Positions 8,724-62,886 of a stretch of DNA of 64,000 nucleotides are shown here, one piece after another. Below the pieces are notes generated by a model. The model made no database searches, was not told where the DNA came from, and was given only the letters and a program-made list of their open reading frames with translations. Source of the DNA: a virus; the IMG/VR virus record IMGVR_UViG_3300025770_000656; one strand, 5' to 3'. The translations under genes were made by a program, and so were the position numbers. Each line of letters starts with the position of its first letter. The first letter of the stretch is position 1.

Positions 8724-8725
8724 CA

Positions 8726-8890
8726 GTGTCTAATATTATTGATTTTAAAACTCGTAAACCTATTCCTATAAGTACCCTACAGAAGGAATGGGTTGAAACT
8801 GTTTCTAACGAAGCCATAGACAACTTAGACATGGCTGATATTATGAGCCTTATTGAAAGTATGGAGAAGTTTTATGGCAACGACAGTTAA
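8726..8890 (+). CDS. small hypothetical protein (not in ORF track)
   Basis: GTG-start 54 aa ORF MSNIIDFKTRKPIP...MEKFYGNDS fills the gap between its neighbours exactly. Confidence 0.5.
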   Translation: MSNIIDFKTRKPIPISTLQKEWVETVSNEAIDNLDMADIMSLIESMEKFYGNDS

Positions 8891-30077: not shown

Positions 30078-30397
30078 TGGACTTACACCAGAGAACTTTA
30101 GCATTAATGGAACAGTTAGACGATCTAAAAACTAAATTTGATACTGAACAAAAAACCATGCTTAAAGGCATGAGGGAAAAACAAACAACAAAAGCTGGGT
30201 GGTCTAGATACAGAGACTGTCAGAAGTTTTTTACTAATGCTAGAAAAGAACTAAACAGTGCTACTAATGATTGCTTATCAGCAGTTAATAAGCCCAGCAT
30301 AAGTAAAATTAAAACTATTGAAGCTAGAATACAAGTATTTGACAATAGCTGGCAACTTGCTAGGCAGTACGGTATGATTGGATTATTATCAGGATGA
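30074..30397 (+). CDS. hypothetical coiled-coil protein
   Basis: 107 aa, overlaps both neighbours. Confidence 0.55.
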   Translation: MMDLHQRTLALMEQLDDLKTKFDTEQKTMLKGMREKQTTKAGWSRYRDCQKFFTNARKELNSATNDCLSAVNKPSISKIKTIEARIQVFDNSWQLARQYGMIGLLSG

Positions 30398-35469: not shown

Positions 35470-36240
35470 ATGGAAAATATAAGCGTACTGCAAAATCTTC
35501 ATACTGTCTTTAATCATCCTTATCCTCATATTTGTATTGAGGATGCGTTGCCTGATAGTGTGTATGATGAATTAGAGGACACTTTTCCAGAAGAATTAGT
35601 TACTAGTACACAACCACACGACAATGGGATATGTTATAGATATAAAGCAAACCCTGCGCTAGTGGATAAAGTAATCCCACAAATTTGGCAAGACTTTTTT
35701 GAGTATCACACAAGCAAAGAGTATTTCTTACAATGCATTAATGCTTTTGAACCGCATATTGAAAAAAGATATCCAGACTTATTAGAAAAGTTGTATGCTG
35801 GCACTGTAGCTATACGTGATGTTGATAAAGATGGAGACTACGTAACTGATTGTCAGTTTGTAGTACATGAGCCTGTGGATCAAACAGGAACTAGTCGAAC
35901 TCCACACGTTGATAATCCAGTGGAAATATATGCTGGACTATTATATATGCGTAAACCCGGAGATGAAAGTGCTGGTGGTAACTTTACTATCCATGAATGT
36001 ACTGGAGAAATTGTTCAAGTAAACAAAACACTGGGCAGACAGGTAGACGATAATTTACATACTCCAATTAAACAAGTACCATACAAGCGTAATACATTTT
36101 GTATGTTCTTAAATGTGCTAGAAAGTGTGCATAGTGTTACGCCACGTATTAATCCTGAGCATCGTAGACATAGTATTAACATTATTGGAGAGTTTAACGG
36201 CACTGGTAAGATGTGGAAAGTTAAAGAAATTAAAAGTTAA
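35470..36240 (+). CDS. 2OG-Fe(II) oxygenase
   Basis: PYPHICIEDALP...PHVD...LLYM...GGNF...SVHSVTPR...RRHSIN. Confidence 0.75.
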   Translation: MENISVLQNLHTVFNHPYPHICIEDALPDSVYDELEDTFPEELVTSTQPHDNGICYRYKANPALVDKVIPQIWQDFFEYHTSKEYFLQCINAFEPHIEKRYPDLLEKLYAGTVAIRDVDKDGDYVTDCQFVVHEPVDQTGTSRTPHVDNPVEIYAGLLYMRKPGDESAGGNFTIHECTGEIVQVNKTLGRQVDDNLHTPIKQVPYKRNTFCMFLNVLESVHSVTPRINPEHRRHSINIIGEFNGTGKMWKVKEIKS

Positions 36241-37463
36241 TGAAAGACAACAGATATGCTATTGGTAAAAGCAGTGGTGTTTTCATCAATGAAGATTCTG
36301 TTGTTAAGATATTTAATATTCGAAACAAAGGTATTAAAGCTGCTCGCGGAAGTTATGAGTTATGTTGGCTTAGGGAAGTAGAATGTTTAACTAGACTGGA
36401 AGGGCAAAGACACTTTCCGCAGATCCTAGAACATCACAAAGATCATCTTGGTCTTAGAATGACAACTGTTGGCGAAAGTTTATTTGACACCTGGCAGGAA
36501 CATAACTTAAAATTGTATATCGATCAAGCACATACTATTGCAGACTCGCTTGAAGCAGCAAATATACAATACTTTTACCCAGGTATGGATCCTGCAAGTA
36601 AAACAAAACAGTACACGAAGTTTCCATTAAGTAACTTCTGTATTGAAGATGGAGAAATAAGTTTAATAGATTACGAGTTAGCAAACCCAGTTGGTGGTAA
36701 ATCTGAACCACAAATGAGTGATAGACTCAGATATCTATACGATAATTATAATAAAGACCATTTTAGGCAATCACTGATTAACGCCTTGGAAAATCCGCAG
36801 GAGTGTTATCAGTCTGAATTAATGGCGAAGTTGGTTAACAAGGATAAGTTTCCTATGTTAGCATCAAAGAACCCTAGAGAGGTATGGAAGTCAATGACAG
36901 CATTTACACAACCCAGCAAAAAAATTGTTAAAGAATGGAAAAGTTATCAGAAACGGTATGGTATGGATGATGCAACTGATCGTGTTGAACGTATGAAGCT
37001 CAGTGAAGTATGCAAGCCTGGAGATAAGTTGCTCGACATCGGCTGTAATGATGGTTACATTACTATGTTAGTTGCTCCAATGGTTGCAAGTGCAACTGGA
37101 GTTGAACCACATGTAGAGTTGCCTAAAACAAAACCCAGTAATGTTAAATGGATAAAATCAACATTTAACGAGTTCTTGGAGGACACATACAAGCAATATG
37201 ATGTACTATTAAGCCTGGCAGTTAGCATTCAGTTACGTGATTTTGGCGGACTTACTGAACAAGAAATTGTAGATGGATATGCTAGTCTATTAGTACCTGG
37301 TGGCATTGTTGTACACGAAACGCAGAAACTCCATGAACGGCCAAATAATCAGAAACATACTGCTAACATGCTGGATGCATTTGCTACTAAGTTTGAGCAA
37401 ATTGATCACGGTAACGCAAGACCCAGCGGAGGTCGCGAGTACTATCATTTTAGGAAAAAGTAA
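36240..37463 (+). CDS. protein-kinase-like domain fused to SAM methyltransferase
   Basis: N-half VVKIF...WLREVECL...HFPQIL...ISLIDYELA; C-half KLLDIGCNDGY...YDVLLSLAV...LVPGGIVV. Confidence 0.65.
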   Translation: MKDNRYAIGKSSGVFINEDSVVKIFNIRNKGIKAARGSYELCWLREVECLTRLEGQRHFPQILEHHKDHLGLRMTTVGESLFDTWQEHNLKLYIDQAHTIADSLEAANIQYFYPGMDPASKTKQYTKFPLSNFCIEDGEISLIDYELANPVGGKSEPQMSDRLRYLYDNYNKDHFRQSLINALENPQECYQSELMAKLVNKDKFPMLASKNPREVWKSMTAFTQPSKKIVKEWKSYQKRYGMDDATDRVERMKLSEVCKPGDKLLDIGCNDGYITMLVAPMVASATGVEPHVELPKTKPSNVKWIKSTFNEFLEDTYKQYDVLLSLAVSIQLRDFGGLTEQEIVDGYASLLVPGGIVVHETQKLHERPNNQKHTANMLDAFATKFEQIDHGNARPSGGREYYHFRKK

Positions 37464-38276
37464 ATGGCCTTTAACAATATTATGCAGTTGGCAACTGCTC
37501 ACATTACTGAACATTTACAACCTAACCCTACTGTAGTAGAGTGGGGAAATCAAAGATTTAGGTACAGTAAAAAATGGACAGACAAGTGCAGTAAAGTTGC
37601 AGGAAAACCTATCCGTGAACCAGTGCAGTATGTTTGGGAATACTTTGAAGATCTAGGGTTTAGTGACTATTTGTCAATTGACATTAATACTGAGTTACGT
37701 AGTATTGCAATGGACCTAAATTTTATACTTAAAGACAAGTATAAGTACACGCAACAATTCGATTTAGTAACTAATAACGGCACTGGAGAACATATCTTTG
37801 ATCAAAGAACTGTATTTGAAAACATGCACAATTTATGCAAGGTTGGTGGGGTTATGCTATGTGTATTGCCACTTGCTCCCTGGTTTAATCATGGCTTTTA
37901 TAATTATCATCCTCAGTTATTCCGTGACATAGCCGCGGCAAACGGGTATAAATGGGTTAACTTCTGGTTAGCACAAAACACCGGCAAGTATATAGAAGCA
38001 CCAGTAGACATGGAAAGCTGGGGGTTTTATGAACAAAAGAAGCCACGCACACCGCTCAGTGAATTAGAAAAAGCCTATGACGATTTACATGAACGTGATG
38101 CTGGCAAGCCACATAATATCAGTATAGTGTCAGCCTATATGAAAACAAAAGACGAACCATTTAATATCCCAATGCAAGGACGTTATGTTAATGATGTAGT
38201 AGCTGAACTAAAGACAGAATACAGTGACAACAACGTTGATGTAAGACAAAAGGATCACACCAGCGCAACTTACTAG
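37464..38276 (+). CDS. SAM-methyltransferase-like protein
   Basis: YLSIDIN...MDLN...FDLVTNNGTGEHIFDQ...CKVGGVMLCVLP...HGFYNY. Confidence 0.6.
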   Translation: MAFNNIMQLATAHITEHLQPNPTVVEWGNQRFRYSKKWTDKCSKVAGKPIREPVQYVWEYFEDLGFSDYLSIDINTELRSIAMDLNFILKDKYKYTQQFDLVTNNGTGEHIFDQRTVFENMHNLCKVGGVMLCVLPLAPWFNHGFYNYHPQLFRDIAAANGYKWVNFWLAQNTGKYIEAPVDMESWGFYEQKKPRTPLSELEKAYDDLHERDAGKPHNISIVSAYMKTKDEPFNIPMQGRYVNDVVAELKTEYSDNNVDVRQKDHTSATY

Positions 38277-38287: not shown

Positions 38288-39895
38288 ATGAAACCAAAAA
38301 TACTGCTGGTATACCCAAATCTTCCACTAATGATGTCACCAGCAATGAGCATGGCAATAATAAATGCCATTGGTAAACGTGAAGGTTGTGAAGTAGAAAT
38401 ATTTGAAACTACACAATACAGTAGTGAATTTAGTAACAAGCACATTAGGCAAAGTGAAATCGGTGCCGTTAGAGCCAACAAAGACGATGAAGTCAAAGAC
38501 ATGTTTTATGTTGCTGACCCAAGTCAAATTATTCCAGATTTTTTAGCGCATGTAAACAAGTTTAAACCTGACATCATCATGATGAGTGTCCAGGAAGACG
38601 TTTATCGCATGGGCTTGCAACTACTAGAAAGTATTAAACATTTAAACATACCAAATGTACTTGGTGGTGTATTAGTTATGAGTGATCCCATGCTAGTAGT
38701 ATCCAACCCACTGGTACATCAGGTTTGTGTATACGAAGGCGAACGTGTAGTATTAGACATTATTAACTGTCTTAAAGCCGGAAAACGTATCAAAAACGTA
38801 AAAGGTACCTGGTACAAAGAACGTGACACATTTGCTATATATAAAAATCCACCACAGCCATTAACTGACATTACAGAAGTTATACCAGACTATACATGCT
38901 TTGACGTTAAACGCTGGAACAGGCCCATGGGCGGCAGAACATTTAATGCCGCAGTCAGCATGGAAACTTATCGCGGGTGTCCATATAATTGTACATACTG
39001 CAATTCACCTAATACTCGCAACATTGCAAATGTATTTGATGTTGGTAATTTTATTAGGCGAAAAGATGCCAGCGTAGTGGAATCTGAGTTACTTGAGTTT
39101 AAAGAATTATATGATCCAGACTTAATTATGATACAGGACGACAGTTTCCTTGCACGACCAGCAAAAGAGATATATGCATTTTGTGAGATGTGGAGCAAGT
39201 ATAAGATTCCATTTTGGATGAATACACGTATTGAAAACTGTAGACCAGAGTATTTGGAAGCTCTTAAAGAGGCTGGCATATATCGTATTAGTTTGGGTAT
39301 TGAAAGTGGTAATGCAGAGTACAGAGAAAACGTACTCTTGCGTAAAGTAAAAAACGAGAAGTATCAGCAATTTTTATCACATATTAATGACAGCAATATA
39401 CCATATGGGTTAAACGTTATTGTTGGTATGCCATATGAAACTCGCGATATGATAATGGAAACTGCTAGAATGGTTCGTGATGCTAGAGGATATGATGGCA
39501 TTAACATTAGTATCTTCCAACCTTATAGAGGAACTAAACTCAGACAAATAGCAGTAGACGCTGGCTTTATGGATCCGGATCATATTAATGGTTGGGACAG
39601 TGGAGAGATAGGTGGTGGATTTATGGACAAGTGGGCATTAACAATGCCTGAACCTTATATACAGGAAGCGGATCTTAAAGGAATAATTAAAACATTTGCA
39701 CTATATTCTTTTTATGGTGATGAACACTGGCCACGTATACGTGAAGCTGAAACTAATGATGATTTAAGACAATGGTATATGCGAGATTATACAGCAAAGT
39801 TCTTTGATCCTCTGCAACAAGGAGGCGCAGATCGTATACAAAAGTTTTGTGCAATGCACGACCATTCCAGTACCTATCAGTGGGTAGAAGCATGA
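38288..39895 (+). CDS. cobalamin-dependent (class B-like) radical SAM enzyme
   Basis: N-terminal KILLVYP...KPDIIMMS...VLGG...VCVYEGE B12-binding-type domain; RGCPYNCTYC; DDSF; RISLGIESG; VIVGMPYET; FQPYRGTKL. Confidence 0.85.
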   Translation: MKPKILLVYPNLPLMMSPAMSMAIINAIGKREGCEVEIFETTQYSSEFSNKHIRQSEIGAVRANKDDEVKDMFYVADPSQIIPDFLAHVNKFKPDIIMMSVQEDVYRMGLQLLESIKHLNIPNVLGGVLVMSDPMLVVSNPLVHQVCVYEGERVVLDIINCLKAGKRIKNVKGTWYKERDTFAIYKNPPQPLTDITEVIPDYTCFDVKRWNRPMGGRTFNAAVSMETYRGCPYNCTYCNSPNTRNIANVFDVGNFIRRKDASVVESELLEFKELYDPDLIMIQDDSFLARPAKEIYAFCEMWSKYKIPFWMNTRIENCRPEYLEALKEAGIYRISLGIESGNAEYRENVLLRKVKNEKYQQFLSHINDSNIPYGLNVIVGMPYETRDMIMETARMVRDARGYDGINISIFQPYRGTKLRQIAVDAGFMDPDHINGWDSGEIGGGFMDKWALTMPEPYIQEADLKGIIKTFALYSFYGDEHWPRIREAETNDDLRQWYMRDYTAKFFDPLQQGGADRIQKFCAMHDHSSTYQWVEA

Positions 39896-40818
39896 AAGTA
39901 TTAGCATTTAGGCATCAATTTCAGGGCGCATTAGCAAATATGCAGTTTAGTCATCCAGAGATAGAGATAGTAGATTGGTTCGACAATCCATATCCAGAAG
40001 CAGATCATTACATTACATGTAACATATATTGCGACAAGTTTAGAGAAGACCCAGTATTTTCTTTTGTTGAGATGAGTAACAAACCTTATATGATATTCGA
40101 GACCGCAGTGTTTAAAAGACAAGCACGTACAGGGGATTGGCTGGATTGGCACTGGCGTTTAGGTTGGTGGCACTTGCTTGCACCTGGAAAGTTTAATAAT
40201 AGGAACTCACCTCCTGACAGATGGTTAGCACTTAAACAAAGACAAAAACTAGAAGTACTTCCCTGGCGTAAACAAGGGAAACATATACTAATACCATTGC
40301 AAAAGAATAATGATAGTGTAGTACAAACTATGATGGACAGATATGGAAGTATGCGTAACTGGCTTAATCACACAATACAAGATATACGTAAGTACAGTGA
40401 TCGTCCTATACTAATACGTCCCAGCGCAAAAACAAACCCATTAAGCTGGGCAGATGCTGAGAGGCTTCCGAATGTAAGTATAAGTACTACTTATAAAGAC
40501 AACCCAAGCACAGACGGAACGAAGTTTACAAAAAACATAGAGGGCGGGCCGGGATTATTGACAGAGCTAGCAGACGCATGGGCAGTAGTTGGATATAACA
40601 CCAGCACGTTGTTTGAGAGTATTACAGATGGCATACCCACAGTAAGTTTAGATCCAGACGCACTTACTGGGCCCTGTAGTATCCCTATAGAACTAATAGA
40701 AGATCCTCCCATGGATATAGAACGTGAACAATGGTTATATAATATGGCATATATTAGCTGGAGTATGGATGAAATACAACGTGGTGTTGCATGGGAACAC
40801 CTAAAGGGAAAGTACTAA
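39892..40818 (+). CDS. KpsS/KpsC-like protein
   Basis: HILIPLQKNND...RPILIRP...WAVVGYNTSTLFESITDGIP...REQWLYNMAYISW; ATG 39892 overlaps the upstream stop. Confidence 0.55.
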   Translation: MKVLAFRHQFQGALANMQFSHPEIEIVDWFDNPYPEADHYITCNIYCDKFREDPVFSFVEMSNKPYMIFETAVFKRQARTGDWLDWHWRLGWWHLLAPGKFNNRNSPPDRWLALKQRQKLEVLPWRKQGKHILIPLQKNNDSVVQTMMDRYGSMRNWLNHTIQDIRKYSDRPILIRPSAKTNPLSWADAERLPNVSISTTYKDNPSTDGTKFTKNIEGGPGLLTELADAWAVVGYNTSTLFESITDGIPTVSLDPDALTGPCSIPIELIEDPPMDIEREQWLYNMAYISWSMDEIQRGVAWEHLKGKY

Positions 40819-41774
40819 TGCAGGAGATAGACAGGGCAGTTATAGAGATAAATGGCGGATGTAATTATACCTGTCAGATGTGTCCGCAAACTAATCCTGA
40901 CGGCTCAACAGGTGCTAGAGGAAAACCCTGGCTTAAAAAAATGCCAATCACTATGTTTGAAGATGCAGTTGCACAATGTGTTGAAGCAGGATTGGGCGTT
41001 GTTAATTTAGACGGCAGCGGAGAGGCAACCTTAAACAGAAACATGGCAGAGTATATTGCTATTGTAAAAAAATACGATGTTAAGTGTTTTATTTTTAGCA
41101 ATGGATACCGTATGCATGGACAATTTATGGAGGAATGTGTAGATGCTGGCTTAGACTTTTACAGGTTTAGTATCATTGGTTATAATAAAGAAACATACAA
41201 GACTTGGATGAACGTTGATAACTTTGATAAGGTCATTGAAAACTTACACGCTATGATGGACTATAGCAAAGGAACTAACTGCCAAGTAGCCACTTATCAT
41301 TTAATATTAGATAACGATAACATAGACTATGAAACAGAACAATACCGTAAAATAGTAGATGCCGCTGGATGTAGTACTGAGATATGGAAAATGCATAACT
41401 GGAGTGGCGTATATGATCCTGATTACTCTAGAGAAGGCAGAATCAAAACATGCGGAAGACCATTTAGTCCGGACATTGTAATACGTGCAGGTGGCAATGA
41501 TGGCAAAACAGGTGCAGTTCATCCGTGTTGTCAGGTATTAGGCAATGACAGTGCCGCAGTACTAGGACATTTTAGTGAAATGACTGTACAAGAAATTATG
41601 ACAGGCGATTTATACGAAGAGCTTAGAGAACAACACCGCACAGGTAACTATCCAGATTTTTGTAAAACCTGTGACTTCTTAATTGATGATCCAGAAACCA
41701 TGGTATACACTAACAGCGGCCGTAGCGAAATGCACATGAACGGAACTAAGTTTAGTCTTAATGATTACAGATAA
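40818..41774 (+). CDS. radical SAM/SPASM-twitch domain protein
   Basis: GCNYTCQMCP; GSGEATLN; C-terminal CGRPF...HPCC...FCKTC. Confidence 0.88.
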   Translation: MQEIDRAVIEINGGCNYTCQMCPQTNPDGSTGARGKPWLKKMPITMFEDAVAQCVEAGLGVVNLDGSGEATLNRNMAEYIAIVKKYDVKCFIFSNGYRMHGQFMEECVDAGLDFYRFSIIGYNKETYKTWMNVDNFDKVIENLHAMMDYSKGTNCQVATYHLILDNDNIDYETEQYRKIVDAAGCSTEIWKMHNWSGVYDPDYSREGRIKTCGRPFSPDIVIRAGGNDGKTGAVHPCCQVLGNDSAAVLGHFSEMTVQEIMTGDLYEELREQHRTGNYPDFCKTCDFLIDDPETMVYTNSGRSEMHMNGTKFSLNDYR

Positions 41775-49259: not shown

Positions 49260-50287
49260 TCAGAGAGTATATGACAGACGGTGTTGCACAATTTAATCGT
49301 GTGCAGATATTAGATTACGCAGACTCAAAAAATAGTGAAGCTCTACGTTCAGACGGTAAATTATATAATCTAGAACTAGGCAAAGGTGCTGCAAAAATTA
49401 AATTCCCCAGAGATGTTGTACATCCTATTGCTAATAAGCGTAATGGAGAGTTTTTCTTATGGTGGAGCAAGCCATTAATTAATTACTATCACTTAATACT
49501 GGACGGGCTGGGGTGTTTGTATTACTATCTTGAATTGCGTAAAAAGAATCCAAACATCGTTTTGTTGCTTAATCGCACACCTAAACCTGGCTATGCTGGA
49601 TACCCTCCTTTTGTTAGTGAACTGCTGAGCTTGTTTGATGTTATCTGGGAATATACTGACCCTTCTACTGAGTACGATACTGTATACTTTGGAGATACAC
49701 TTAATCAGAATGAGGCTGGAAAACGCCAAAAGCCAGACCCCAGGCAATGGGACTTAATTGACTATCTAGTTGACCGTTGTGTAACCAGAACAGAAGTGCC
49801 AGAGCTCAGTAAAATTTACATAAGCAGGCGGGCTCATGCCAATCCTGTTAACTTAGACCGTAAAGCAATAATTGGTGAAGATAACACCATTAAGCGAGGG
49901 CTAACTAATGAAGATCAAGTAGTAGAGATACTACGAGATCTAGGTTACACAGAAGTATTTGGTGAAAATTATACACTGGCTCAAAAAATTGCCTTGTTTA
50001 GTAGAATGGACAAGTATATTAGCACCGCAGGTGCCGGCGTAACTAATATGCTCTGGGTTAGAGATCATGAGGTAAGTGTGGGCGGAATACATACTCCTGG
50101 ATTTCCATTTCCCAGCAATACTCACAGCAGACATATTTGCACCCATAGACCTTACAGTAAGGCAAACATTATAAACTATCCAGGGAAAGTACTATTTCAT
50201 GATCCAGATGCAGGTGCTAAAGATTATAACAATCCCTGGTATATTAATAATCTAGATGCCTTTAAAAACTGGGCTAAAACAATATAA
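49256..50287 (+). CDS. GT61/DUF563-like glycosyltransferase
   Basis: NYYHLILD...KIYISRR...RGLTNEDQV...LAQKIALFS...GAGVTNMLW. Confidence 0.7.
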   Translation: MIREYMTDGVAQFNRVQILDYADSKNSEALRSDGKLYNLELGKGAAKIKFPRDVVHPIANKRNGEFFLWWSKPLINYYHLILDGLGCLYYYLELRKKNPNIVLLLNRTPKPGYAGYPPFVSELLSLFDVIWEYTDPSTEYDTVYFGDTLNQNEAGKRQKPDPRQWDLIDYLVDRCVTRTEVPELSKIYISRRAHANPVNLDRKAIIGEDNTIKRGLTNEDQVVEILRDLGYTEVFGENYTLAQKIALFSRMDKYISTAGAGVTNMLWVRDHEVSVGGIHTPGFPFPSNTHSRHICTHRPYSKANIINYPGKVLFHDPDAGAKDYNNPWYINNLDAFKNWAKTI

Positions 50288-50328
50288 ATATGTACGTACT
50301 CATGGAGGAGTGCTGGAAGTAGGTAATT

Positions 50329-50889
50329 ATGGTTGCAGAAATATTAGCTGGCATTGCACTAGCAAAGTCTGCGGTCACCGGTATTAAGAGTATGATTGAT
50401 ACGGCAAATGATGTTGGTGATATAGCTCATCACATTGACAATCTTTTTAAAAGTCGTGACCAAGTTAAGAGAGATATCCATAAAAATCAAAACGCAAAAA
50501 AACCTAAAAGTAAAATGCGTTCTATGTTTACTAAAACAACAGGAGAGGATGAGGACGATGATCTAAGTGTTGGTGCTGTAGCCACTATGGTGCTTGAGCA
50601 GAAGAAGATGGATAGAGAGATTTTAAATCTTGGAATCAGAATCGACAATAAGTTCGGCGAGGGCACATGGACTGAGATTTTAGAAACAAGAAAGAAAATG
50701 ATTGCTGAGCATAAAAAACAAGTAGAAGCTCAAAAAGAAATGGATAAGCAGCATGATAAAGAGGTTCACGATTTTTGGATAAAAGTTTGGACATGGACAT
50801 GGCAAATAACCACAGTAATTACAACTATATTGGCTCTATGGGGATGGTTATCTTATGCAAGTAAGGGTAAGATTCCTTGGATATGGTAA
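50329..50889 (+). CDS. hypothetical protein with C-terminal TM segment
   Basis: 186 aa; hydrophobic C-terminal WTWQITTVITTILALWGWL; promoter TATAAATA at 50283. Confidence 0.65.
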   Translation: MVAEILAGIALAKSAVTGIKSMIDTANDVGDIAHHIDNLFKSRDQVKRDIHKNQNAKKPKSKMRSMFTKTTGEDEDDDLSVGAVATMVLEQKKMDREILNLGIRIDNKFGEGTWTEILETRKKMIAEHKKQVEAQKEMDKQHDKEVHDFWIKVWTWTWQITTVITTILALWGWLSYASKGKIPWIW

Positions 50890-50898
50890 CTAATAAAG

Positions 50899-51585
50899 AT
50901 GGACAATGTTGTTCTTAATGAACTAACGGATGAAAATCTTGTCCTACAAATGCATGATGATATGTATGATGGGCTTGCTGCTGAAATAGCAGAAGGCACA
51001 CAAATTCTACTTAACCGAGATTGGAAACCTTACGCTGTTCTCAATGAGGCTCTAATCGCCGGCATGAAAATTGTCGGTATTGATTTTCGAGATGGCATTT
51101 TATTCGTACCGGAAGTTCTTCTTGCAGCAAATGCAATGAAGGCGGGAATGGCTATTCTACGACCTTTATTAGCTGAATCAGATGCACCGCGGGTTGGCAC
51201 CATAGTTATTGGAACTGTTAAGGGTGATATACATGATATAGGCAAAAACCTAGTAAGCATGTTGTTAGAAGGTGCAGGATTTGAAGTTATTGATATTGGT
51301 GTTAACACTGATGTTGATGAGTATATAACTGCTCTAGAAGAACATAATGCTGATATTCTAGGCATGTCTGCATTATTGACTACGACAATGGGATATATGA
51401 AGGTTGTAATTTATGAACTTGAACAACGTGGATTACGTAATAATTACCGTGTTATAGTAGGCGGCGCTCCTTTGAATGAGGAGTTTGCTATTAATATTGG
51501 TGCAGATGCCTACTGTCGCGATGCTATGGTGGCAGTTGAAACCTCGACAGCCTTCATGAAGGAATCGCTAGATAATAGCTTATGA
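50899..51585 (+). CDS. mtbC: stand-alone cobalamin-binding corrinoid protein (MtbC / split-MetH B12 module)
   Basis: Cap domain (EALIAGMKIVGIDFRDGILFVPEVLLAANAMK) plus B12 domain with GTVKGDIHDIGKNLV (DxHxxG), GMSALLTTTM and VIVGGAP...IGADAYCRDA. Confidence 0.9.
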   Translation: MDNVVLNELTDENLVLQMHDDMYDGLAAEIAEGTQILLNRDWKPYAVLNEALIAGMKIVGIDFRDGILFVPEVLLAANAMKAGMAILRPLLAESDAPRVGTIVIGTVKGDIHDIGKNLVSMLLEGAGFEVIDIGVNTDVDEYITALEEHNADILGMSALLTTTMGYMKVVIYELEQRGLRNNYRVIVGGAPLNEEFAINIGADAYCRDAMVAVETSTAFMKESLDNSL

Positions 51586-51618
51586 TGTGTTTAGCCCCGG
51601 GTCGTGGGATTGATTCAA

Positions 51619-52302
51619 CTACAAGGTACACAAATAATACGGACGTTCTAATGTCTGTCCTGGTATTTTCTTTACACTACTAAAATTTTTATTAACCGAT
51701 TCTACAAACAGTTTTTCTGTGTAGTCAGTATCTATTGTCCATTTATGGCCTTTTTTGTCACGTTCTGTTGGAAACTCAAAGAGTACGTGCTTGTTACTCT
51801 TGCTAGCAAAGTCACCAACTAGTTTATCCATGTCGCGATATTGTTCAGTACGATCATAGAGATGATGTATAACATTAAACACTGTTAACAAATCATATGT
51901 GTCACTACACGTAACCCAGCCCTCTAAATTGCTATGGGTAAAACTAGAATCTCTTAGCAAGTCATGATGTCTAGCTTTAATACTCTGACAAACGCCAATG
52001 TATTCCATGTTGTAGTCTACTCCCATGCTAGGGATACGTGCTATTGAACTTAAAAATACGTAATATCCCAGGTTACAGCCAAAGTCAGCGTAAGTCTTGG
52101 GTCGGATATCGTTAATAATTTCTTTAAAGAATTCGCTTTTAACTTTTGTATCAGTCCATGGCCGTGACTTTGTAGGATTGCTGGATGCTGAAATAGCGTT
52201 ATCAGATACCATATAATTCTGATAGCCACGCACGATTGTTATGTCACTTTCATGCCCGCCATAGTCAATACTTTCTATGTCTGCACGTTCTAATGTCTGC
52301 AT
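51619..52302 (-). CDS. class I SAM-dependent methyltransferase
   Basis: YADFGCNLGYY...GVDYN...YDLLTVFNVIHH...VLFEFP. Confidence 0.75.
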   Translation of the reverse strand: MQTLERADIESIDYGGHESDITIVRGYQNYMVSDNAISASSNPTKSRPWTDTKVKSEFFKEIINDIRPKTYADFGCNLGYYVFLSSIARIPSMGVDYNMEYIGVCQSIKARHHDLLRDSSFTHSNLEGWVTCSDTYDLLTVFNVIHHLYDRTEQYRDMDKLVGDFASKSNKHVLFEFPTERDKKGHKWTIDTDYTEKLFVESVNKNFSSVKKIPGQTLERPYYLCTL

Positions 52303-52314
52303 GCTGTATTTACC

Positions 52315-52449
52315 TTAGCTATGGCAATAGATAAAAATACCAAGAAGTACTGCTAAAATTATAATAACCCATCCAATAAAACTTAATACGCTAGGAAAAA
52401 ACTGAGCTAAGAGTATAATAACTATAACAAGCAGTAAAAAATGCAACAT
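52315..52449 (-). CDS. small hydrophobic membrane protein (not in ORF track)
   Basis: 44 aa MLHFLLLVIVIILLAQFFPSVLSFIGWVIIILAVLLGIFIYCHS; its ATG overlaps the upstream TAA. Confidence 0.55.
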   Translation of the reverse strand: MLHFLLLVIVIILLAQFFPSVLSFIGWVIIILAVLLGIFIYCHS

Positions 52450-52625
52450 TAATTTAGCCTTCCAAAATACCTATTCAAAGCGGCTATAACACCTGACCAA
52501 TAGTTTTTACCCCATTCACCAGTGCAATTATCATATGCTTGACGAGCATTAGTTACCAGCCTAAAGTACTGCTCTTCATTAAGTGAATCTACATTTCCAG
52601 TTTGGGATCTTACTACGTGTTTCAT
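52449..52625 (-). CDS. small hypothetical protein
   Basis: 58 aa MKHVVRSQTG...RYFGRLN; the tracked longer ORF overlaps the upstream gene. Confidence 0.5.
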   Translation of the reverse strand: MKHVVRSQTGNVDSLNEEQYFRLVTNARQAYDNCTGEWGKNYWSGVIAALNRYFGRLN

Positions 52626-52632
52626 TTTATGC

Positions 52633-52890
52633 TTACTTTGGATCAGTATCTTCAGTAAGTGTTCCGCACTTAGTAGTGGCAGCCATTGCTGCCATTGCAT
52701 TAAGCATAGCAGCAAACATCTGCTCGCCTTTACGATCTTTAGGCTTTTTATACCGATAAACGCAACTAGCAGACACGCCATCCTGTGATTGTACTGCATC
52801 TCTTGCAAACATACAACTGTCCATGTTTTTAAACTGAGCACTTCCTACCATTGTGCTACCTACCAGGGTAACCATAACTACAGTATTCAT
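52633..52890 (-). CDS. small exported/membrane hypothetical protein
   Basis: 85 aa, GAGGAG RBS, hydrophobic N-terminus, F..M.SC....C motif. Confidence 0.6.
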   Translation of the reverse strand: MNTVVMVTLVGSTMVGSAQFKNMDSCMFARDAVQSQDGVSASCVYRYKKPKDRKGEQMFAAMLNAMAAMAATTKCGTLTEDTDPK

Positions 52891-52905
52891 GAGATCTCCT
52901 CTTTA

Positions 52906-52980
52906 ATAACTTTTCCTTTTTCACTCATTACGTGGTGTATCTCTCACCAGTAAACATGTTAACCATGTCTACACCAGGGC
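52906..52980. repeat. 75-bp direct repeat, copy 1
   Basis: ATAACTTTTCCTTTTTCACTCATTACGTGGTGTATCTCTCACCAGTAAACATGTTAACCATGTCTACACCAGGGC; one mismatch to copy 2. Confidence 0.95.
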
Positions 52981-53068
52981 CCAAAGGAAAGTCTTGAGCA
53001 CTTGTCGAAGTTTGACACCCTGTCATCATCGTTAATGCTACAGCAGCGATTGCAAGTGACTTTTTCAT
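52928..53068 (-). CDS. short lipoprotein-signal ORF ending in repeat-encoded tail (possible chimera)
   Basis: 46 aa MKKSLAIAAVALTMMTGC-QTSTSAQDFPL-GPGVDMVNMFTGERYTT; AGGAG RBS; lipobox-like MTGC. Confidence 0.55.
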   Translation of the reverse strand: MKKSLAIAAVALTMMTGCQTSTSAQDFPLGPGVDMVNMFTGERYTT

Positions 53069-53247
53069 TAGAATTCTCCTAACTGTGTTTCGAGATATTT
53101 ACGGGCATAGTCACCCGCCATGGTTGACCGAAAAAACTTATCAGCATCTGCGGCTACCTCATCAACGGTGAACTCTGAGTCACCACCATAGAAGTATCCA
53201 TCACAGAACTCTTCGATATCCATCATGTAATTTTTCATCTTACTCAT
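53068..53247 (-). CDS. small acidic hypothetical protein (not in ORF track)
   Basis: 59 aa MSKMKNYMMDIEEFCDGYF...LETQLGEF; its stop overlaps the next ATG. Confidence 0.6.
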   Translation of the reverse strand: MSKMKNYMMDIEEFCDGYFYGGDSEFTVDEVAADADKFFRSTMAGDYARKYLETQLGEF

Positions 53248-53495
53248 AACAACAACCCCAAAACTTTCTGGGCCGCAAGACCCTTCTTTTCAGCCAGATC
53301 AAATGCGCCCTTATCGGCCTTGAAAATAGCTTCGCCACCCTGGCCGTAATATTCTTCATCATCAATACTACCATACCGTTCAACATAGGCAGCCAAGTTG
53401 CCACCGTGGTTCGCAAACCACCGCCGCTGGCTATCCCGCTCTTTAATCCAAAATCTTGCGTTCTTTTTATTCATAACTTTTCCTTTTTCACTCAT
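53244..53495 (-). CDS. hypothetical protein
   Basis: 83 aa (or from the internal ATG at MNKKNARF). Confidence 0.6.
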   Translation of the reverse strand: MSEKGKVMNKKNARFWIKERDSQRRWFANHGGNLAAYVERYGSIDDEEYYGQGGEAIFKADKGAFDLAEKKGLAAQKVLGLLL

Positions 53496-53547
53496 TACGT
53501 GGTGTATCTCTCACCAGTAAACACGTTAACCATGTCTACACCAGGGC
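53473..53547. repeat. 75-bp direct repeat, copy 2
   Basis: Identical to 52906-52980 except ACACGTT versus ACATGTT; 567 bp spacing. Confidence 0.95.
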
Positions 53548-53855
53548 TTCCTAGGAAACGAGTCCATTGCGGCTCTAGCTTCAAAACGCTCTTCAGCAAT
53601 TTGCTCTGGAGTACGTTCTGCCTGAGCCTGCATATAAACTTCCATGCTCTGTTTTACGCTGATTGAACGAGCAACTTCTGTAGCTTCTACATGTTGCTCA
53701 GTAACCAAACCAGCTTCTAGCAATTCTTTCATGGCATCCGCCATCAAAGGACGGTGCTCATATCCACCATCAAAGCCTTCTTCAAACTCCCAACCACAAA
53801 CAAAATCTTTAATAACAACTTCACCTGCTGTAAATTTGTCTGTCATGTAGCTCAT
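53495..53855 (-). pseudogene. early gene apparently frameshifted by a 16-nt insertion near its 3' end
   Basis: The ORF ends AAMDSFPRKPWCRHG* at 53526. Removing 53548-53563 gives AAMGPGVDMVNVFTGERYTT*, with TAA overlapping the next ATG. Confidence 0.5.
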
Positions 53856-53887
53856 TTGTTGGTCTCTTGTGTTGTTTAACTATACAT

Positions 53888-53917
53888 ATAATAACACAGA
53901 TCTAAGTCTGGTCAACC
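53888..53917 (-). promoter_or_regulatory. sigma70-type early promoter
   Basis: GGTTGAC-N14-TGTTATTAT on the minus strand, upstream of ATG 53855. Confidence 0.7.
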
Positions 53918-53921
53918 AATT

Positions 53922-54044
53922 CTAAGAAAAAATATACCAACAAATTGCAGAAACAGCAATTATGTCAGCACAAATACTCCATACAATGTATGCTTTAAAT
54001 GCCCATGGAGCCATGGACTTTAGTAGGTTCTGGGTCTTCAGCAT
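53922..54044 (-). CDS. small hydrophobic protein (not in ORF track)
   Basis: 40 aa MLKTQNLLKSMAPWAFKAYIVWSICADIIAVSAICWYIFS with a GAGGG RBS. Confidence 0.4.
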   Translation of the reverse strand: MLKTQNLLKSMAPWAFKAYIVWSICADIIAVSAICWYIFS

Positions 54045-54114
54045 CGCAAGATCCCTCTAAAGTTTGTAAAAAAATCATAATTTATGCCTTTTTTTGTTGA
54101 TATTTATCCTTTCT

Positions 54115-54144
54115 GGTTGACCATAGATAAATTTGTGCTATTAT
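54115..54144 (+). promoter_or_regulatory. sigma70-type early promoter
   Basis: GGTTGAC-N14-TGCTATTAT. Confidence 0.7.
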
Positions 54145-54172
54145 AAGTTATAGTTAGAAAACAACGGAGCAG

Positions 54173-57006: not shown

Positions 57007-57729
57007 ATGAGTATAATCTATAAAATTACAAACAAATTAAACGGTAAAATATATGTTGGAAAAAGTAAGTATAGCATGGATGATTATTTTGGATCAGGGA
57101 TTATTATAACGCATGCAATTAAAAAATATGGAATAGAAAACTTTACTAAAGAAATAATTGTTGAATGCGATGATGCTGAAATTGATGAGCTAGAAGGATA
57201 TTGGATAGAACAATTAAACGCACGTGACAAATCAGTGGGTTACAATATATCCAGCGGCGGACAGGGCGGAGACCACTATTGGAAAGTTATGTCCGATGAA
57301 GAAAGAGAGCAGCACCGAGAGAAAATCCGAAAAAGTATTAAGGGAAGAAAACGAGCACCGCATAGCGAAGAAACAAAAAGAAAAATGTCAGCGAGCTTTG
57401 GCCGCGTTGTGGCCGACGATCCGGAATTTATTGCTCGACGAGCAGCAAAGAAGAGAAAGCACTATATTATAATTGATCATGAGAATAAAGTAGTATACGA
57501 AACGGATAATATTGTGGAATTTTGCCAAGACAACGATGTACCGTCGCATGCTCGGTTACAACATAATGAGAGAAATAAGAAAACATACGTTGATGGTAGG
57601 TGGTCATGTAGATTAAAAGAGGAATATGTTATGGATAACGTAATCAGCTTTGTCGATAATGAGGTAGTTAATAACACAATAGAATATAAGATGAGACAAA
57701 CAGCAAATAGAAAAAAGGGAAATAAATGA
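57007..57729 (+). CDS. free-standing GIY-YIG homing endonuclease
   Basis: IIYKITNKLNGKIYVGKS...YFGSG...AIKKYGIENF.KEII...E.YWI...GYNI; NUMOD3 PHSEETKRKMS. Confidence 0.88.
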   Translation: MSIIYKITNKLNGKIYVGKSKYSMDDYFGSGIIITHAIKKYGIENFTKEIIVECDDAEIDELEGYWIEQLNARDKSVGYNISSGGQGGDHYWKVMSDEEREQHREKIRKSIKGRKRAPHSEETKRKMSASFGRVVADDPEFIARRAAKKRKHYIIIDHENKVVYETDNIVEFCQDNDVPSHARLQHNERNKKTYVDGRWSCRLKEEYVMDNVISFVDNEVVNNTIEYKMRQTANRKKGNK

Positions 57730-59183
57730 AGCCGTGCGTTATTCATGTCAACGATGAAGTTAACTGTAAGTTAGAAGGCTTAGATTTGGATACCAGGCGT
57801 AAGCTGAGTAATAAGTTTAAGTATGATGTGCCAGGTGCTCGCTATATGCCAGCGGTAAGGCTAGGACGTTGGGACGGCAAGGTTGCTTTTTTCCAAATGG
57901 GAGGCAGTACTTACATTAACTTGTTACCAGAAATTCTTACTGTATTGCAGAGTGACGGATATGATGTTACGTTAAACGACTTACGTGATTATCAGATAGA
58001 CCTGAATTTAGAGCCTGTAACAGCAGATAGTTATGCTGAGTTTTCATGGCCTGACAAGCATCCAGCCGCAGGGCAACCTATTATGTTGCGTGACTATCAG
58101 GTAGATGTTATTAATAATTTCCTAACAAATCCGCAGAGCTTACAAGAAGTAGCAACTGGTGCTGGTAAGACACTTATTACAGCCGTGCTAAGTCACAGAT
58201 GCGAAGCACATGGCAGAACAGTTATTATTGTTCCTAACAAGAGCCTGGTAACGCAAACCCAAGAAGACTACATTAACATGGGATTAGATGTTGGCGTATA
58301 TTATGGTGACCGCAAGGAGTTTGGCAAAACACACACCATTTGTACCTGGCAGAGTTTAAACATACTGTTAAAAAATACCAAGAATCAGAGAGCAGAGATT
58401 ACTATTGGAGACTTCCTAGAAGACGTAGTTTGCATTATGGTAGACGAAGTACACATGGCAAAAGCAGATGCACTCAAGACATTGCTAACAGGAGTAATGA
58501 GTCATATACCTGTACGCTGGGGATTAACTGGAACAATACCCAAGGAAGATTTCGAAAAGCAAAGTTTGTTTTGTAGCATTGGGCCAGTAACCGGCAGCAT
58601 TAGTGCTAAAGAGTTGCAAGACAAAGGAGTTCTTGCAAATTGCGAAGTGAATGTGTTACAATTAATAGATGTAAAAGAGTATACAAACTATCAGAGTGAA
58701 CTTAAATACTTGTTGGAAGCCACTGATAGATTAGATTACATTGGTGGTGTAATAGATAATATTAAAGATACTGGTAATACGCTGGTATTGGTGGACAGAA
58801 TAAATGCAGGAAAAGAATTACAGAAAAGGATTCCGTCTTCCGTTTTTGTTAGCGGTGGAACAAAGGCACAGGAGCGTAAGGATCATTATGATGAGGTGGC
58901 TGACGCAACTGGTAAAGTTATTATTGCTACTTATGGTGTTGCCAGTGTTGGTATTAATATACCCCGTATTTTTAATTTGGTATTGTTGGAACCCGGCAAG
59001 AGCTTCGTCCGTGTTATCCAAAGTATCGGAAGAGGAATTAGAAAAGCAGAAGACAAGGACTTTGTCCAGATATGGGATGTTACATCGACGTGTAGGTTCG
59101 CGAAGAGGCACCTTACCAAAAGGAAAGCGTTCTATAAAGAGGCAAACTACCCCTTTACGGTTCAAAAAGTAGACTGGACTTAA
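57726..59183 (+). CDS. uvsW: SF2 DNA helicase UvsW
   Basis: LRDYQ Q-motif, ATGAGKT, DEVH, GLTGT, STGINIP-like VGINIP, QSIGRGIR. Confidence 0.88.
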   Translation: MKPCVIHVNDEVNCKLEGLDLDTRRKLSNKFKYDVPGARYMPAVRLGRWDGKVAFFQMGGSTYINLLPEILTVLQSDGYDVTLNDLRDYQIDLNLEPVTADSYAEFSWPDKHPAAGQPIMLRDYQVDVINNFLTNPQSLQEVATGAGKTLITAVLSHRCEAHGRTVIIVPNKSLVTQTQEDYINMGLDVGVYYGDRKEFGKTHTICTWQSLNILLKNTKNQRAEITIGDFLEDVVCIMVDEVHMAKADALKTLLTGVMSHIPVRWGLTGTIPKEDFEKQSLFCSIGPVTGSISAKELQDKGVLANCEVNVLQLIDVKEYTNYQSELKYLLEATDRLDYIGGVIDNIKDTGNTLVLVDRINAGKELQKRIPSSVFVSGGTKAQERKDHYDEVADATGKVIIATYGVASVGINIPRIFNLVLLEPGKSFVRVIQSIGRGIRKAEDKDFVQIWDVTSTCRFAKRHLTKRKAFYKEANYPFTVQKVDWT

Positions 59184-61160: not shown

Positions 61161-61711
61161 TCGATTTACCAGATATTGATATAGATTTTAAAAATAGAAC
61201 TCAGGTGCTGGGACTAATTAGCAATACTGGTGCTAGGTTAGAAACAGGAAAACAGCATAATACAGGAGTTTACTTTACAGACATTCCCAGTGGCAGTGAT
61301 GGTTTGGCTACTGTTGATCACAAAGCGGCAGAACAACTTGGTTATTTTAAGCTGGATTTACTTAATGTTAGCGTGTATGAACAGGTCCGTGACGAGGTTC
61401 ACTTAGTAGAACTGATGACCACTGAGCCTAATTGGAGTAAACTCTGGGAAGATCCTGAATACTGTGAAAAGATTGTACACATTGGCAACCATTACGACTT
61501 GGTTAAAAGCATGAAACCAGATAGTATTCCACGTATGGCAATGTTTTTGGCTGTAATGCGTCCCGGCAAAAGCTATTTGCGTAACAAACCCTGGGCAGAA
61601 GTTGGTAAAACAGTGTGGGATCGTCCAGCCAATGATAAGTATTTCTTTAAAAAGGCCCATGCTGTAAGTTATGCACACTTAGTAGTAGTCCATATGAATT
61701 TATTCAGATGA
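61157..61711 (+). CDS. miniature DnaE (Pol III alpha)-like protein
   Basis: PDIDIDF, HNTGVYF, GYFKLDLLN, LAVMRPG and FKKAHAVSYA are collinear with DnaE palm/finger motifs in 184 aa. Confidence 0.75.
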   Translation: MIDLPDIDIDFKNRTQVLGLISNTGARLETGKQHNTGVYFTDIPSGSDGLATVDHKAAEQLGYFKLDLLNVSVYEQVRDEVHLVELMTTEPNWSKLWEDPEYCEKIVHIGNHYDLVKSMKPDSIPRMAMFLAVMRPGKSYLRNKPWAEVGKTVWDRPANDKYFFKKAHAVSYAHLVVVHMNLFR

Positions 61712-62886
61712 GTAAATTTTGTGTAGCATTGTTTAATGCAATACGGAAAGATCAAGACTTTCGTATACGACCCTGTTGTGTTTTTAGATCTAAAAAAAGC
61801 ATATATCAGATAGATGATTATTTAAAATCTGATTACATGGCCGATGCACGAAAACGCATGATTGACGGGCAATCTATACCAGAGTGCGGTGTATGCTGGC
61901 AAAAAGAAAAAGCAGGCTTAACAAGTTTACGCCACATATATAATCAACAGTTTTTACACAACAAAAATATTCCTGATAATATAGCTAAAAAAGCTAAAAC
62001 AAAAATTATCCAGGCAGATATAAAGATAGGTAACCGTTGCAATTATGCTTGTGCTATGTGTCATCCGGGAGATAGTAGTTTAATCTTTAACAAATATAAA
62101 GCGAATCTAGATAACAAATTTGTGCAAGAGTATAGTAAAAAAAATTCAAATTTTATGGATGCGAAATTAAACACTAACTATAGAAATACTAGCCTGCAAA
62201 TGTTAGATAATGTATTATCAACAACTAGTGTACGTAGTATTAAAATACTAGGTGGTGAACCGTTATTAGAACAAGAATTCTTAAAACGATTAGCTTCTGT
62301 GCCAGACGCACATAAACAAAAAATAACATTATGGGTAGTAACTAACGGTAGTATAGATTTAGTGAATACATTATCCAAGCTGGGCAAGTATAAAGCAATT
62401 GTCGTAACAGTAAGTTTAGAAGGAACAGGAAAGTTACAAGAATATGTCAGGAAACGAAGTAGTTGGCAACAGATTGAATCTAACATCTGTAAGTTTTTAG
62501 AGTTTAATAATCCACGTTGGTTCTTAGGTGTACACCACACTATGCAAGCATTAAGTTTGCATGGATTGGTAGATTTAATAACGTGGTGTGATGGGTTAGG
62601 TATAAAGATTACATATCAAAACTTAACAAACCCTGACTATCTAAGTTTAGCTATTACGTCTCCGGAGTACAGACGACAACAAATGGATAATGTAAATGTA
62701 CAGGGTACCAATAATTTTCAAGGTGAGGATTTAAATTTATCTGGAGATCTTGCTAGTTATTGTCTACAACAGGATTATAAACCGGAGTTGGTGGGAAAAT
62801 TTTTAAAGTATTGTAAATTTTATGAGTCAGATCATAACCTAAAATTACTAGAAGTTGCTCCAGAATTACTTGACTCTTTTAACTAG
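61708..62886 (+). CDS. radical SAM protein with N-terminal twitch/SPASM-like Cys cluster
   Basis: RPCCVF...ECGVCW; GNRCNYACAMC; ILGGEPLL; VVTNGS; VSLEG...YVR. Confidence 0.85.
   Translation: MSKFCVALFNAIRKDQDFRIRPCCVFRSKKSIYQIDDYLKSDYMADARKRMIDGQSIPECGVCWQKEKAGLTSLRHIYNQQFLHNKNIPDNIAKKAKTKIIQADIKIGNRCNYACAMCHPGDSSLIFNKYKANLDNKFVQEYSKKNSNFMDAKLNTNYRNTSLQMLDNVLSTTSVRSIKILGGEPLLEQEFLKRLASVPDAHKQKITLWVVTNGSIDLVNTLSKLGKYKAIVVTVSLEGTGKLQEYVRKRSSWQQIESNICKFLEFNNPRWFLGVHHTMQALSLHGLVDLITWCDGLGIKITYQNLTNPDYLSLAITSPEYRRQQMDNVNVQGTNNFQGEDLNLSGDLASYCLQQDYKPELVGKFLKYCKFYESDHNLKLLEVAPELLDSFN

Follow-up and report, generated by a model that had tools for sequence, protein, structure and literature searches.

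A predicted orthologue of the corrinoid subunit MtgC carried as a strain-variable gene by marine jumbo phages

In Phaeobacter inhibens methionine is made through a three-part MetH in which the B12 module is a separate protein, PGA1_c13350 or MtbC (Price et al. 2018, PMC5764234); a DUF1638 protein and a protein resembling RamA assist this split enzyme (PMC5764234). The orthologue of Ruegeria pomeroyi (SPO2160) was given the name MtgC by Mausz et al. 2025 (PMC12478193), and it is essential there in two processes, the synthesis of methionine, where its partners are MtgD and MtgE, and the demethylation of glycine betaine, where they are MtgB and MtgD (PMC12478193). Between 2018 and 2025 MtgC has been recognised as the B12 hub shared by these two processes in abundant marine bacteria, a small cobalamin carrier that shuttles between the enzymes giving and those taking up methyl groups. 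Here we describe a stretch of viral DNA of 64,000 nucleotides (IMG/VR record IMGVR_UViG_3300025770_000656; hereafter the window) in which the gene at 50899–51585, mtgC, is predicted to encode an orthologue of MtgC, the corrinoid subunit of split methionine synthase and of the aerobic glycine-betaine methyltransferase. The protein appears as an ordinary orthologue of a known family and the concept of viral auxiliary metabolic genes is known.

The gene starts with ATG and encodes a stand-alone protein of 228 amino acids, of the size and architecture expected of aerobic MtgC (about 210–245 amino acids, PF02607 followed by PF02310). In Pfam, the cap (PF02607, B12-binding_2) covers residues 18–87 (E 3e-16; score 59.7 bits, cut-off 23) and the Rossmann domain (PF02310, B12-binding) residues 101–212 (E 9e-26; score 90.5 bits, cut-off 32.1). 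The first cobalamin motif of the translation, GTVKGDIHDIGKN (read as KGDIHDIG), gives the DxHxxG signature D110-x-H112-x-x-G115, and the other two are GMSALLTTT (S157–T163) and VGGAPLN (G188–P191). Together they provide the base-off/His-on cobalamin ligation set, D110-I-H112-D-I-G115, S157-A-L159 and G188-G189, and no variation of DxHxxG, SALLTT or GGAP was seen among 25 aligned homologues. A preliminary description of the locus, made from the letters alone, had claimed an intact cap plus B12-binding protein with these motifs, and the open reading frame (ORF), Pfam and the alignment agree with it. Sequence matches in the PDB were the Moorella corrinoid protein 1Y80 (E 5e-55), MttC 7XCN, Desulfitobacterium 4JGI and MetH 1BMT. 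The AlphaFold model (mean predicted local distance difference test, pLDDT, 74.6) shows four helices followed by a five-strand Rossmann fold, and its best Foldseek matches were the corrinoid proteins 4JGI, 7XCN and 3EZX, plus MetH.

The assignment to MtgC is supported by homologues, gene order and phylogeny. Identity of the window protein to MtgC-type proteins is 73–86%, and a homology search of 5.8 billion proteins, set to lengths of 125–399 amino acids, returned thousands of stand-alone cap plus B12 proteins at E <1e-99. About 45 of 80 named bacterial loci have an MTTB-family gene next to the homologue. Ensifer shows the order MTTB, MtgC, DUF1638 and the roseobacter Aliiruegeria MtgC, DUF1638, and because both match the published MtgC loci (PMC12478193, PMC5764234) they argue for orthology to MtgC. 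Orthology to SPO2160 and PGA1_c13350 is drawn from synteny and the tree. In the tree the window protein is nested (98/84) in a clade with members of MTTB–dimethylglycine dehydrogenase–MtgC clusters, which is the placement expected of an aerobic MtgC. The best NCBIfam match was 'glycine betaine-specific corrinoid protein MtgC' (NF047996), a model built on proteins of anaerobes, at 212 bits and under its cut-off of 370; NF047995 (166 against 310 bits), NF041607 (173 against 350) and TIGR02370 (170 against 215) also stayed under their cut-offs. The score with TIGR02082 (MetH) was 153 against 1011 bits, and only the cap and B12 domains are present, so the protein is not a full MetH. Placement in a protein atlas led to generic 'corrinoid protein' clusters only. 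A CarH-like or photoreceptor reading was rejected for want of a DNA-binding domain and because such proteins are far less similar. The type proposed in the preliminary description, a stand-alone corrinoid protein of split MetH and betaine methyltransferase systems, holds on the evidence of domains, homologues and published loci, and the family can now be given the name MtgC.

The window comes from a T4-like jumbo myovirus. Its genome is estimated at about 360 kb on the basis of related IMG/VR records, which are 46–203 kb long and 13–57% complete according to CheckV. Phage hallmarks lie on both sides of mtgC, with genes for a gp15-like sheath stabiliser, the tail sheath and tube, the large terminase (TerL), a single-stranded DNA-binding protein (SSB) and UvsX upstream and a gp41-like helicase downstream (Table 1). 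The nearest isolates by TerL are the jumbo phages Pseudomonas PA5oct (52.6%), Sinorhizobium Phosso and Agrobacterium Atu_ph07 (range 50–53%). TerL relatives at 56–99% were also observed on at least 192 IMG/VR contigs, pointing to an abundant uncultured marine group without a cultured member.

Composition and synteny place the gene firmly in this genome. The window has a GC content of 38.5% throughout, and mtgC, with 39.9% GC and 27.5% GC at third codon positions (GC3), is phage-like, its bacterial relatives having 54–64% GC. Across the phage copies of mtgC GC3 is 20–31%, against 61–93% in bacterial orthologues, which points to a long residence in phage genomes. L114, a contig assembled independently from a different sample, matches positions 49864–54170 of the window colinearly at 95% nucleotide identity and carries the same order of 186-amino-acid gene, mtgC and convergent methyltransferase, so the arrangement is not a chimera. 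The preliminary description had named a chimeric, host-derived segment as one outcome that would overturn it; the flanks, GC3, L114 and a phage-only clade (see below) show that this is not the case. Thus mtgC has what defines a viral auxiliary metabolic gene, namely a host-derived gene with viral flanks in a non-chimeric sequence. A tblastn search of MtgC against 50,697 phage records returned only short unannotated gut 'Bacteriophage sp.' contigs (30–54% identity) and mislabelled bacterial records, and 24 kb of the window, compared by megablast with isolated phages, matched none of them. The view that a B12 carrier is not typical phage cargo is borne out by the lack of a close homologue in isolated GenBank phages.

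A closely related record (G001, IMG/VR, 55.6 kb) shows the locus without the gene. It is about 86–94% identical in nucleotides to the window between 44 and 58 kb, and positions 50000–50402 and 51626–52499 of the window align at 89% to 7501–7902 and 8394–9267 of its contig L101, leaving between them 1,223 bp in the window and 491 bp in G001. This difference in length corresponds to the whole of mtgC and a diverged allele of the upstream gene of 186 amino acids. The homologue in G001 (L101:7829–8386, 185 amino acids, 41% protein identity) is not accompanied by mtgC, and its end lies a single base ahead of the stop of the convergent methyltransferase. A protein search of G001 for MtgC gave no match, in line with a true absence at the syntenic junction. 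mtgC is therefore an optional, strain-variable accessory gene. The insertion site is marked by the 186-amino-acid gene, which is conserved among phages, with homologues in G001 and in the phage contig L111; its stop lies 9 nt before the start of mtgC, with which it is probably co-transcribed. On the other side, G001 and L114 both keep the convergent methyltransferase next to the junction. Between the window and L111 the 186-amino-acid gene has changed sides, being upstream of mtgC in the former and downstream in the latter (L111:5406–5969), and its final 52 nt are 90% identical in the two.

The donor of the gene can be addressed by the tree only, because window MtgC is 68–74% identical to orthologues of Alphaproteobacteria, Actinomycetota, Chloroflexota and Gammaproteobacteria alike (among the matches listed) and the family evolves very slowly, which makes percent identity uninformative. 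In a maximum-likelihood tree of 67 rows (LG+C20+F+G4) the window protein groups with P0001, P0003, P0004, P0006 and P0009 in a first phage clade (clade 1, support 100/100). All the member contigs inspected are phage-like, L001–L004 by T4 spanin, RNase H, SegE and class II (B12-dependent) ribonucleotide reductase, L111 by glutaredoxin, a phage lysozyme and genes homologous to those of the window, and L114 by its colinearity with the window; L115 does not have the length needed for a judgement. The bacterial proteins among which clade 1 nests (see above) are P0010, P0021 and P0022. Two sister bacterial contigs (GC 44–49%) and L005 (GC 57%) have one gene order, FAA hydrolase, MTTB, dimethylglycine dehydrogenase, MtgC and MatE, and the named nearest relatives of this dehydrogenase are from a marine 'Rhodospirillaceae bacterium', Magnetovibrio and Rhodospirillales metagenome-assembled genomes. 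With the taxon of the sister clade taken from the neighbouring dehydrogenase and one 'Rhodospirillaceae bacterium' label, the tree points to Rhodospirillales-like marine Alphaproteobacteria as the probable donor of clade-1 mtgC. Tree, sister loci and dehydrogenase relatives agree in this respect with the marine alphaproteobacterial origin suggested earlier. The alphaproteobacterial host that had been proposed with it fares less well: the donor indicated by the tree speaks for it, and the case is weaker than claimed given the similar identities across phyla and the fact that a donor need not be the present host. Since SAR11 is without the Mtg system (PMC12478193), a pelagiphage with a SAR11 host appears disfavoured.

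A second phage-only clade (clade 2, IMG/VR loci L007–L017, support 100/99) sits among Rhodobacterales, on the opposite side of a branch with 100/97 support. Forcing all phage sequences into a single clade costs 57 log-likelihood units and is rejected by the approximately unbiased (AU) test (p = 0.0013; groups named after viewing a quick tree). Related phages thus captured mtgC at least twice, from two alphaproteobacterial orders. The relatedness of the carriers is seen in TerL, shared at 57–59% between the window and the clade-2 phages (58–59% for records G002–G005), and in L015 and L017, which share the sheath with the window and have SSB and UvsX at 63% and 69%. The gene was found in at least five contexts across phages: between the 186-amino-acid membrane-protein gene and the convergent methyltransferase (window, L114); after an RNase H, a PD-(D/E)XK and a zf-CHCC gene (L001–L004); downstream of lysozyme and upstream of the 186-amino-acid gene homologue (L111); between the tail tube and a homologue of window 18864–19298 (L009, L015, L017, L019); and after an epimerase and a cation-efflux gene, before an alpha/beta hydrolase (L007–L014). 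Clade-1 mtgC genes are 83–86% identical in DNA yet their flanks share nothing, which suggests that the gene moved between phage genomes after capture. The clade-2 contigs carry further cargo that is unusual for phages, in that an NAD-dependent epimerase gene and one for a cation-diffusion facilitator closely precede mtgC and a fatty-acid desaturase and another radical S-adenosylmethionine (SAM) gene lie downstream (L010:6731–8573, L010:13923–14645, L008:14655–15779).

Pairwise ratios of nonsynonymous to synonymous substitution (dN/dS) between phage copies of mtgC range from 0.04 to 0.20, indicating purifying selection on a gene that appears to be selectively maintained. An alignment of 88 bacterial orthologues has 123 columns conserved to at least 95%; every one of the six clade-1 copies agrees with them at 112 shared columns and every one of the six clade-2 copies at 119, and the changes at these columns are all conservative (L/M, V/I, T/S, A/S, E/D and similar). 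Since the acidic N-terminal segment is retained as well, the whole molecule and not the cofactor pocket alone is conserved. The stem branch of the phage clade is long (0.23–0.30 substitutions per site).

The balance of this evidence tips slightly towards viral MtgC being an auxiliary metabolic protein that would use the MtgD, MtgE and MtgB of the host and sustain the supply of methionine and SAM. In this scenario the phage protein would load host cobalamin during infection and dock with host MtgD and MtgE (and MtgB), RamA and the DUF1638 protein, replacing or supplementing the MtgC of the host. Methyl groups would then continue to flow from methyl-tetrahydrofolate or glycine betaine to methionine, SAM and the folate one-carbon pool while the expression of host genes fails and SAM-consuming phage enzymes raise the demand; the window alone has at least four methyltransferase-fold and three radical SAM genes. 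That the protein docks with partners of the host, and that the phage gains from this, is what we infer.

The partners are not supplied by the phage in the sequences at hand. Pterin_bind, S-methyl_trans, MTTB, DUF1638 and RACo/RamA gave no match in five mtgC-carrying phage fragments (about 650 kb), no partner-type Pfam domain (mtgB, mtgD, mtgE, ramA, DUF1638) was present among the scanned ORFs of the window, and 3,009 ORFs from 83 bacterial mtgC neighbourhoods searched by tblastn against the window matched nothing except mtgC. The partner genes of the aerobic MtgC system are therefore lacking from the window and the five fragments, a feature of the system and not of the protein. Several points weigh against the use of host partners. 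Presence of MtgD, MtgE and MtgB in the host is assumed, and the partner search spanned the 64-kb window with about 300 kb of the genome outside it, related records being 13–57% complete. It is not obvious why a carrier alone, without the catalytic subunits, would raise the flux. The gene is moreover dispensable, missing in G001 and with no copy in the sequenced parts of further relatives (5 + 11 of 22 fragments, G001 included, are without it). Finally, buffering of cobalamin would fit the orphan status equally well.

Such buffering constitutes the main and serious rival, although we regard it as unlikely. Apo-MtgC would capture free cobalamin, either relieving riboswitch repression of B12 synthesis and uptake in the host or holding a reserve, and the B12 pool for the class B (B12-binding) radical SAM enzyme and the class II ribonucleotide reductase of the phage would rise. 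A regulatory cobalamin-buffering role of MtgC that tunes riboswitch control has been proposed in P. inhibens (bioRxiv 10.64898/2025.12.19.695462), and an orphan carrier without partners suits a role in binding only. The phage family is also rich in B12 users, with class B radical SAM genes in the window, G001, G005, G008, G009 (two), G015 and G021 and a class II ribonucleotide reductase on the mtgC-carrying L001. Nevertheless, mtgC and class B radical SAM genes are not associated across 22 fragments, and G001 keeps an identical radical SAM gene without mtgC. Conservation extends beyond the B12 pocket to the cap and the acidic N-terminal segment, and an Rfam scan of the window gave no match and thus no cobalamin riboswitch. 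Captures from two different bacterial orders into related phages are expected if the protein has to match host partners and are unnecessary for a pure B12 sponge, and because of them the matching of host partners is favoured.

The phage protein could instead compete with host MtgC for MtgB, MtgD and MtgE and thereby redirect or block one branch, for instance switching off the breakdown of glycine betaine so that the osmolyte is retained, or driving methyl groups into methionine. MtgC is indeed the shared node of two pathways in which the ratio of partners sets the direction (PMC12478193; bioRxiv 10.64898/2025.12.19.695462), and the long stem branch and the few clade-specific substitutions at conserved columns could reflect such a change of role. 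These substitutions are conservative, the cofactor motifs are all intact, nothing suggests a protein that has been disabled or altered, and purifying selection has the strength usual for a normal enzyme, all of which makes a decoy very improbable.

Even less credence can be given to a protein that serves only to bring methyl-cobalamin to the phage's own class B radical SAM enzyme within a glycan and methylation cluster, a tempting reading of mtgC as servant of a neighbouring methylase that is corrected here. The cluster reported in the preliminary description, with at least four SAM methyltransferases and two radical SAM genes, is present, mtgC and the radical SAM gene lie in one cluster of roughly 22 kb, and G005 holds both genes, though 108 kb apart. 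Enzymes of class B carry a B12-binding domain of their own, as this one does (PF02310), and re-methylate their bound cobalamin from SAM. In G001 the enzyme is 100% identical in amino acids and the whole cluster is kept, with mtgC missing, whereas G002, G003, G004 and G006 have mtgC and no class B radical SAM gene in 74–155 kb. The survey of co-occurrence that had been suggested, over 22 phage fragments whose incompleteness makes them weak as a negative, gave two fragments with both genes (the window and G005), those four with mtgC only, five with the radical SAM gene only (G001, G008, G009, G015, G021) and 11 with neither (odds ratio 1.1, Fisher p = 1.0). With this ratio, G001 and the five unrelated contexts of mtgC, no positive evidence is left for a coupling, and a link of mtgC to the class B enzyme and the methylation cluster is not supported. 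Close homologues in phages without any methylation cluster had been named as a finding that would count against the proposal; they largely exist, and this takes away the cluster link while the identity of the gene stands. Genes for class B radical SAM enzymes (495–632 amino acids) were observed to be common in the marine jumbo-phage family (G001; G005, L113:712–2589, minus strand; G008, L197; G009, L196 and L200; G015, L199; G021, L198), and their types differ (24% identity between the window and G005), which points to a broad B12 requirement of the family.

A host fragment mis-joined into a phage contig, or bacterial contamination, is a practically negligible explanation in spite of bacterial orthologues with up to 80% identity, given the phage-like GC and GC3 of mtgC, the tightly spaced phage genes on either side, the same three genes on the independent L114 and the presence of members of the phage-only clade on about ten further phage contigs.

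Table 1. Features of the window and their positions
Feature	Position	Strand	Basis or remark
gp15-like sheath stabiliser	4737–6143	-	PHROG/Pfam
GIY-YIG/NUMOD3 homing-endonuclease-like gene	6140–6739	-	
Tail sheath	12811–16059		PHROG/Pfam
Tail tube	16865–18268		PHROG/Pfam
ORF of 121 amino acids	18497–18862	+	No Pfam match
Gene with homologue beside mtgC in L009, L015, L017, L019	18864–19298		
Large terminase TerL	22010–23575	+	PHROG/Pfam
gp32-like SSB	26501–27532		PHROG/Pfam
UvsX	28235–29344		PHROG/Pfam
SAM methyltransferase-fold gene	30394–31161		Pfam
SAM methyltransferase-fold gene	36240–37463		Pfam
SAM methyltransferase-fold gene	37464–38276		Pfam
Class B (B12-binding + radical SAM) enzyme	38288–39895	+	Pfam Radical_SAM + B12-binding PF02310
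Radical SAM/SPASM gene	40791–41774		Pfam
Predicted membrane/coiled-coil protein, 186 amino acids	50329–50889	+	ORF; no Pfam match
Strain-variable segment	50403–51625		blastn; 1,223 bp, 491 bp in G001
mtgC, stand-alone corrinoid (cobalamin-binding) protein	50899–51585	+	ORF, Pfam, PDB/Foldseek, tree
SAM methyltransferase-fold gene, convergent, 3' boundary of insertion	51619–52302	-	Weak Pfam Methyltransf_23/12
GIY-YIG/NUMOD3 homing-endonuclease-like gene	57007–57729	+	
gp41-like helicase	57726–59183		PHROG/Pfam
Third radical SAM gene, in the replication-gene region	61708–62886	+	Full-length match at 237 bits (cut-off 170) to NCBIfam NF033640, 'twitch domain-containing radical SAM protein'

Besides the methyltransferase-fold and radical SAM genes, the region between 30 and 52 kb contains 2-oxoglutarate-Fe(II) oxygenases, cupins, a cytidylyltransferase/mannose-6-phosphate-isomerase-like gene and a GT61-like gene. 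The NCBIfam matches of the class B enzyme are to B12 radical SAM proteins of the HpnJ/PhpK/BchE type, all under cut-off. The small ORF between the tail-tube gene and the gene that follows it in the window occupies the slot that holds mtgC in L009, L015, L017 and L019, and this place in the structural module looks like a variable cargo site. Two homing-endonuclease-like genes are found in the window and a SegE-like GIY-YIG gene lies near mtgC in L001 and L002; homing endonucleases are possible vehicles for the movement of cassettes between phages. The contig L001 encodes, in addition to MtgC, a class II ribonucleotide reductase-like protein (PF21995, 28.8 bits) and a glutamine-synthetase-like protein (Gln-synt_N/C) at L001:2934–5150 and L001:5434–6429, and a reductase of this type was absent from the five related fragments searched.

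Phage-encoded MtgC or corrinoid carriers are not mentioned in the searchable literature, and the 2025 PNAS paper on MtgC makes no mention of phage or virus (PMC12478193). Repeated capture, strong purifying selection, relocation and strain-variable carriage argue that control of the MtgC node pays off in infection. On a wider and clearly more tentative view, possible rather than probable, MtgC might be a recurrent, host-matched hub-subunit auxiliary gene of abundant marine phages of roughly 360 kb, each lineage capturing it from its own host order (Rhodospirillales-like in one case, Rhodobacterales in the other) because in B12-dependent methyl flow no node is as limiting, or as labile, as the carrier. 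Infection would then reprogramme methionine and SAM regeneration and glycine-betaine turnover, possibly also the cellular B12 set-point, in cosmopolitan ocean bacteria, and the phage mtgC clade could serve as a marker for host prediction. If confirmed, B12-dependent methyl transfer would join the ocean metabolisms manipulated by viruses, and part of the environmental 'mtgC' read counts would be viral. The mtgC deletion mutants that exist in R. pomeroyi and P. inhibens offer a simple genetic test system.

Compared with the MtgC of R. pomeroyi and P. inhibens, the window protein has equal size, the same stand-alone architecture of cap and B12 Rossmann domain and the same His-on motif set. Named alphaproteobacterial orthologues beside MTTB and/or DUF1638 are 69–74% identical to it, and identity is 78–80% with the bacterial sister clade, whose genes neighbour those for MTTB and dimethylglycine dehydrogenase. 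Unlike the bacterial genes, the window copy is encoded by a virus, has phage codon usage, is an orphan and is present or absent among near-identical phage strains. The clade-2 phage proteins belong to the same family and to the broad family of marine myoviruses of roughly 360 kb; they differ in being about 71–73% identical to the window protein, in lying at another locus and in nesting with Rhodobacterales, as a separate capture would have it.

With the B12 module of MetH (Escherichia coli 1BMT, Thermus thermophilus 8SSC) the protein shares the two-domain fold and the DxHxxG...SxL...GG cobalamin ligation, whereas MetH is a single chain of about 1,200 amino acids with homocysteine, folate and reactivation domains and the window protein is the B12 module alone; the similarity is also much lower (E about 1e-28, where MtgC proteins reach 1e-100 or better). 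The corrinoid proteins of methanogens and acetogens (MttC 7XCN, MtmC 3EZX, MtbC, Desulfitobacterium hafniense MtgC, Moorella 1Y80) are likewise stand-alone carriers with a shared fold that serve separate methyltransferases. Window MtgC nevertheless stays under their NCBIfam cut-offs, and the aerobic MtgC clade is phylogenetically distinct from them (PMC12478193). Among viral genes, the closest parallels are cobS and cobT of cyanophages and pelagiphages, class II ribonucleotide reductase and the viral tetrapyrrole genes (PMC11480375), all of which touch the tetrapyrrole or B12 metabolism of the host. These genes are biosynthetic or B12-using, in contrast to phage MtgC, which would be the cofactor-carrying hub subunit of a methyl-transfer system.

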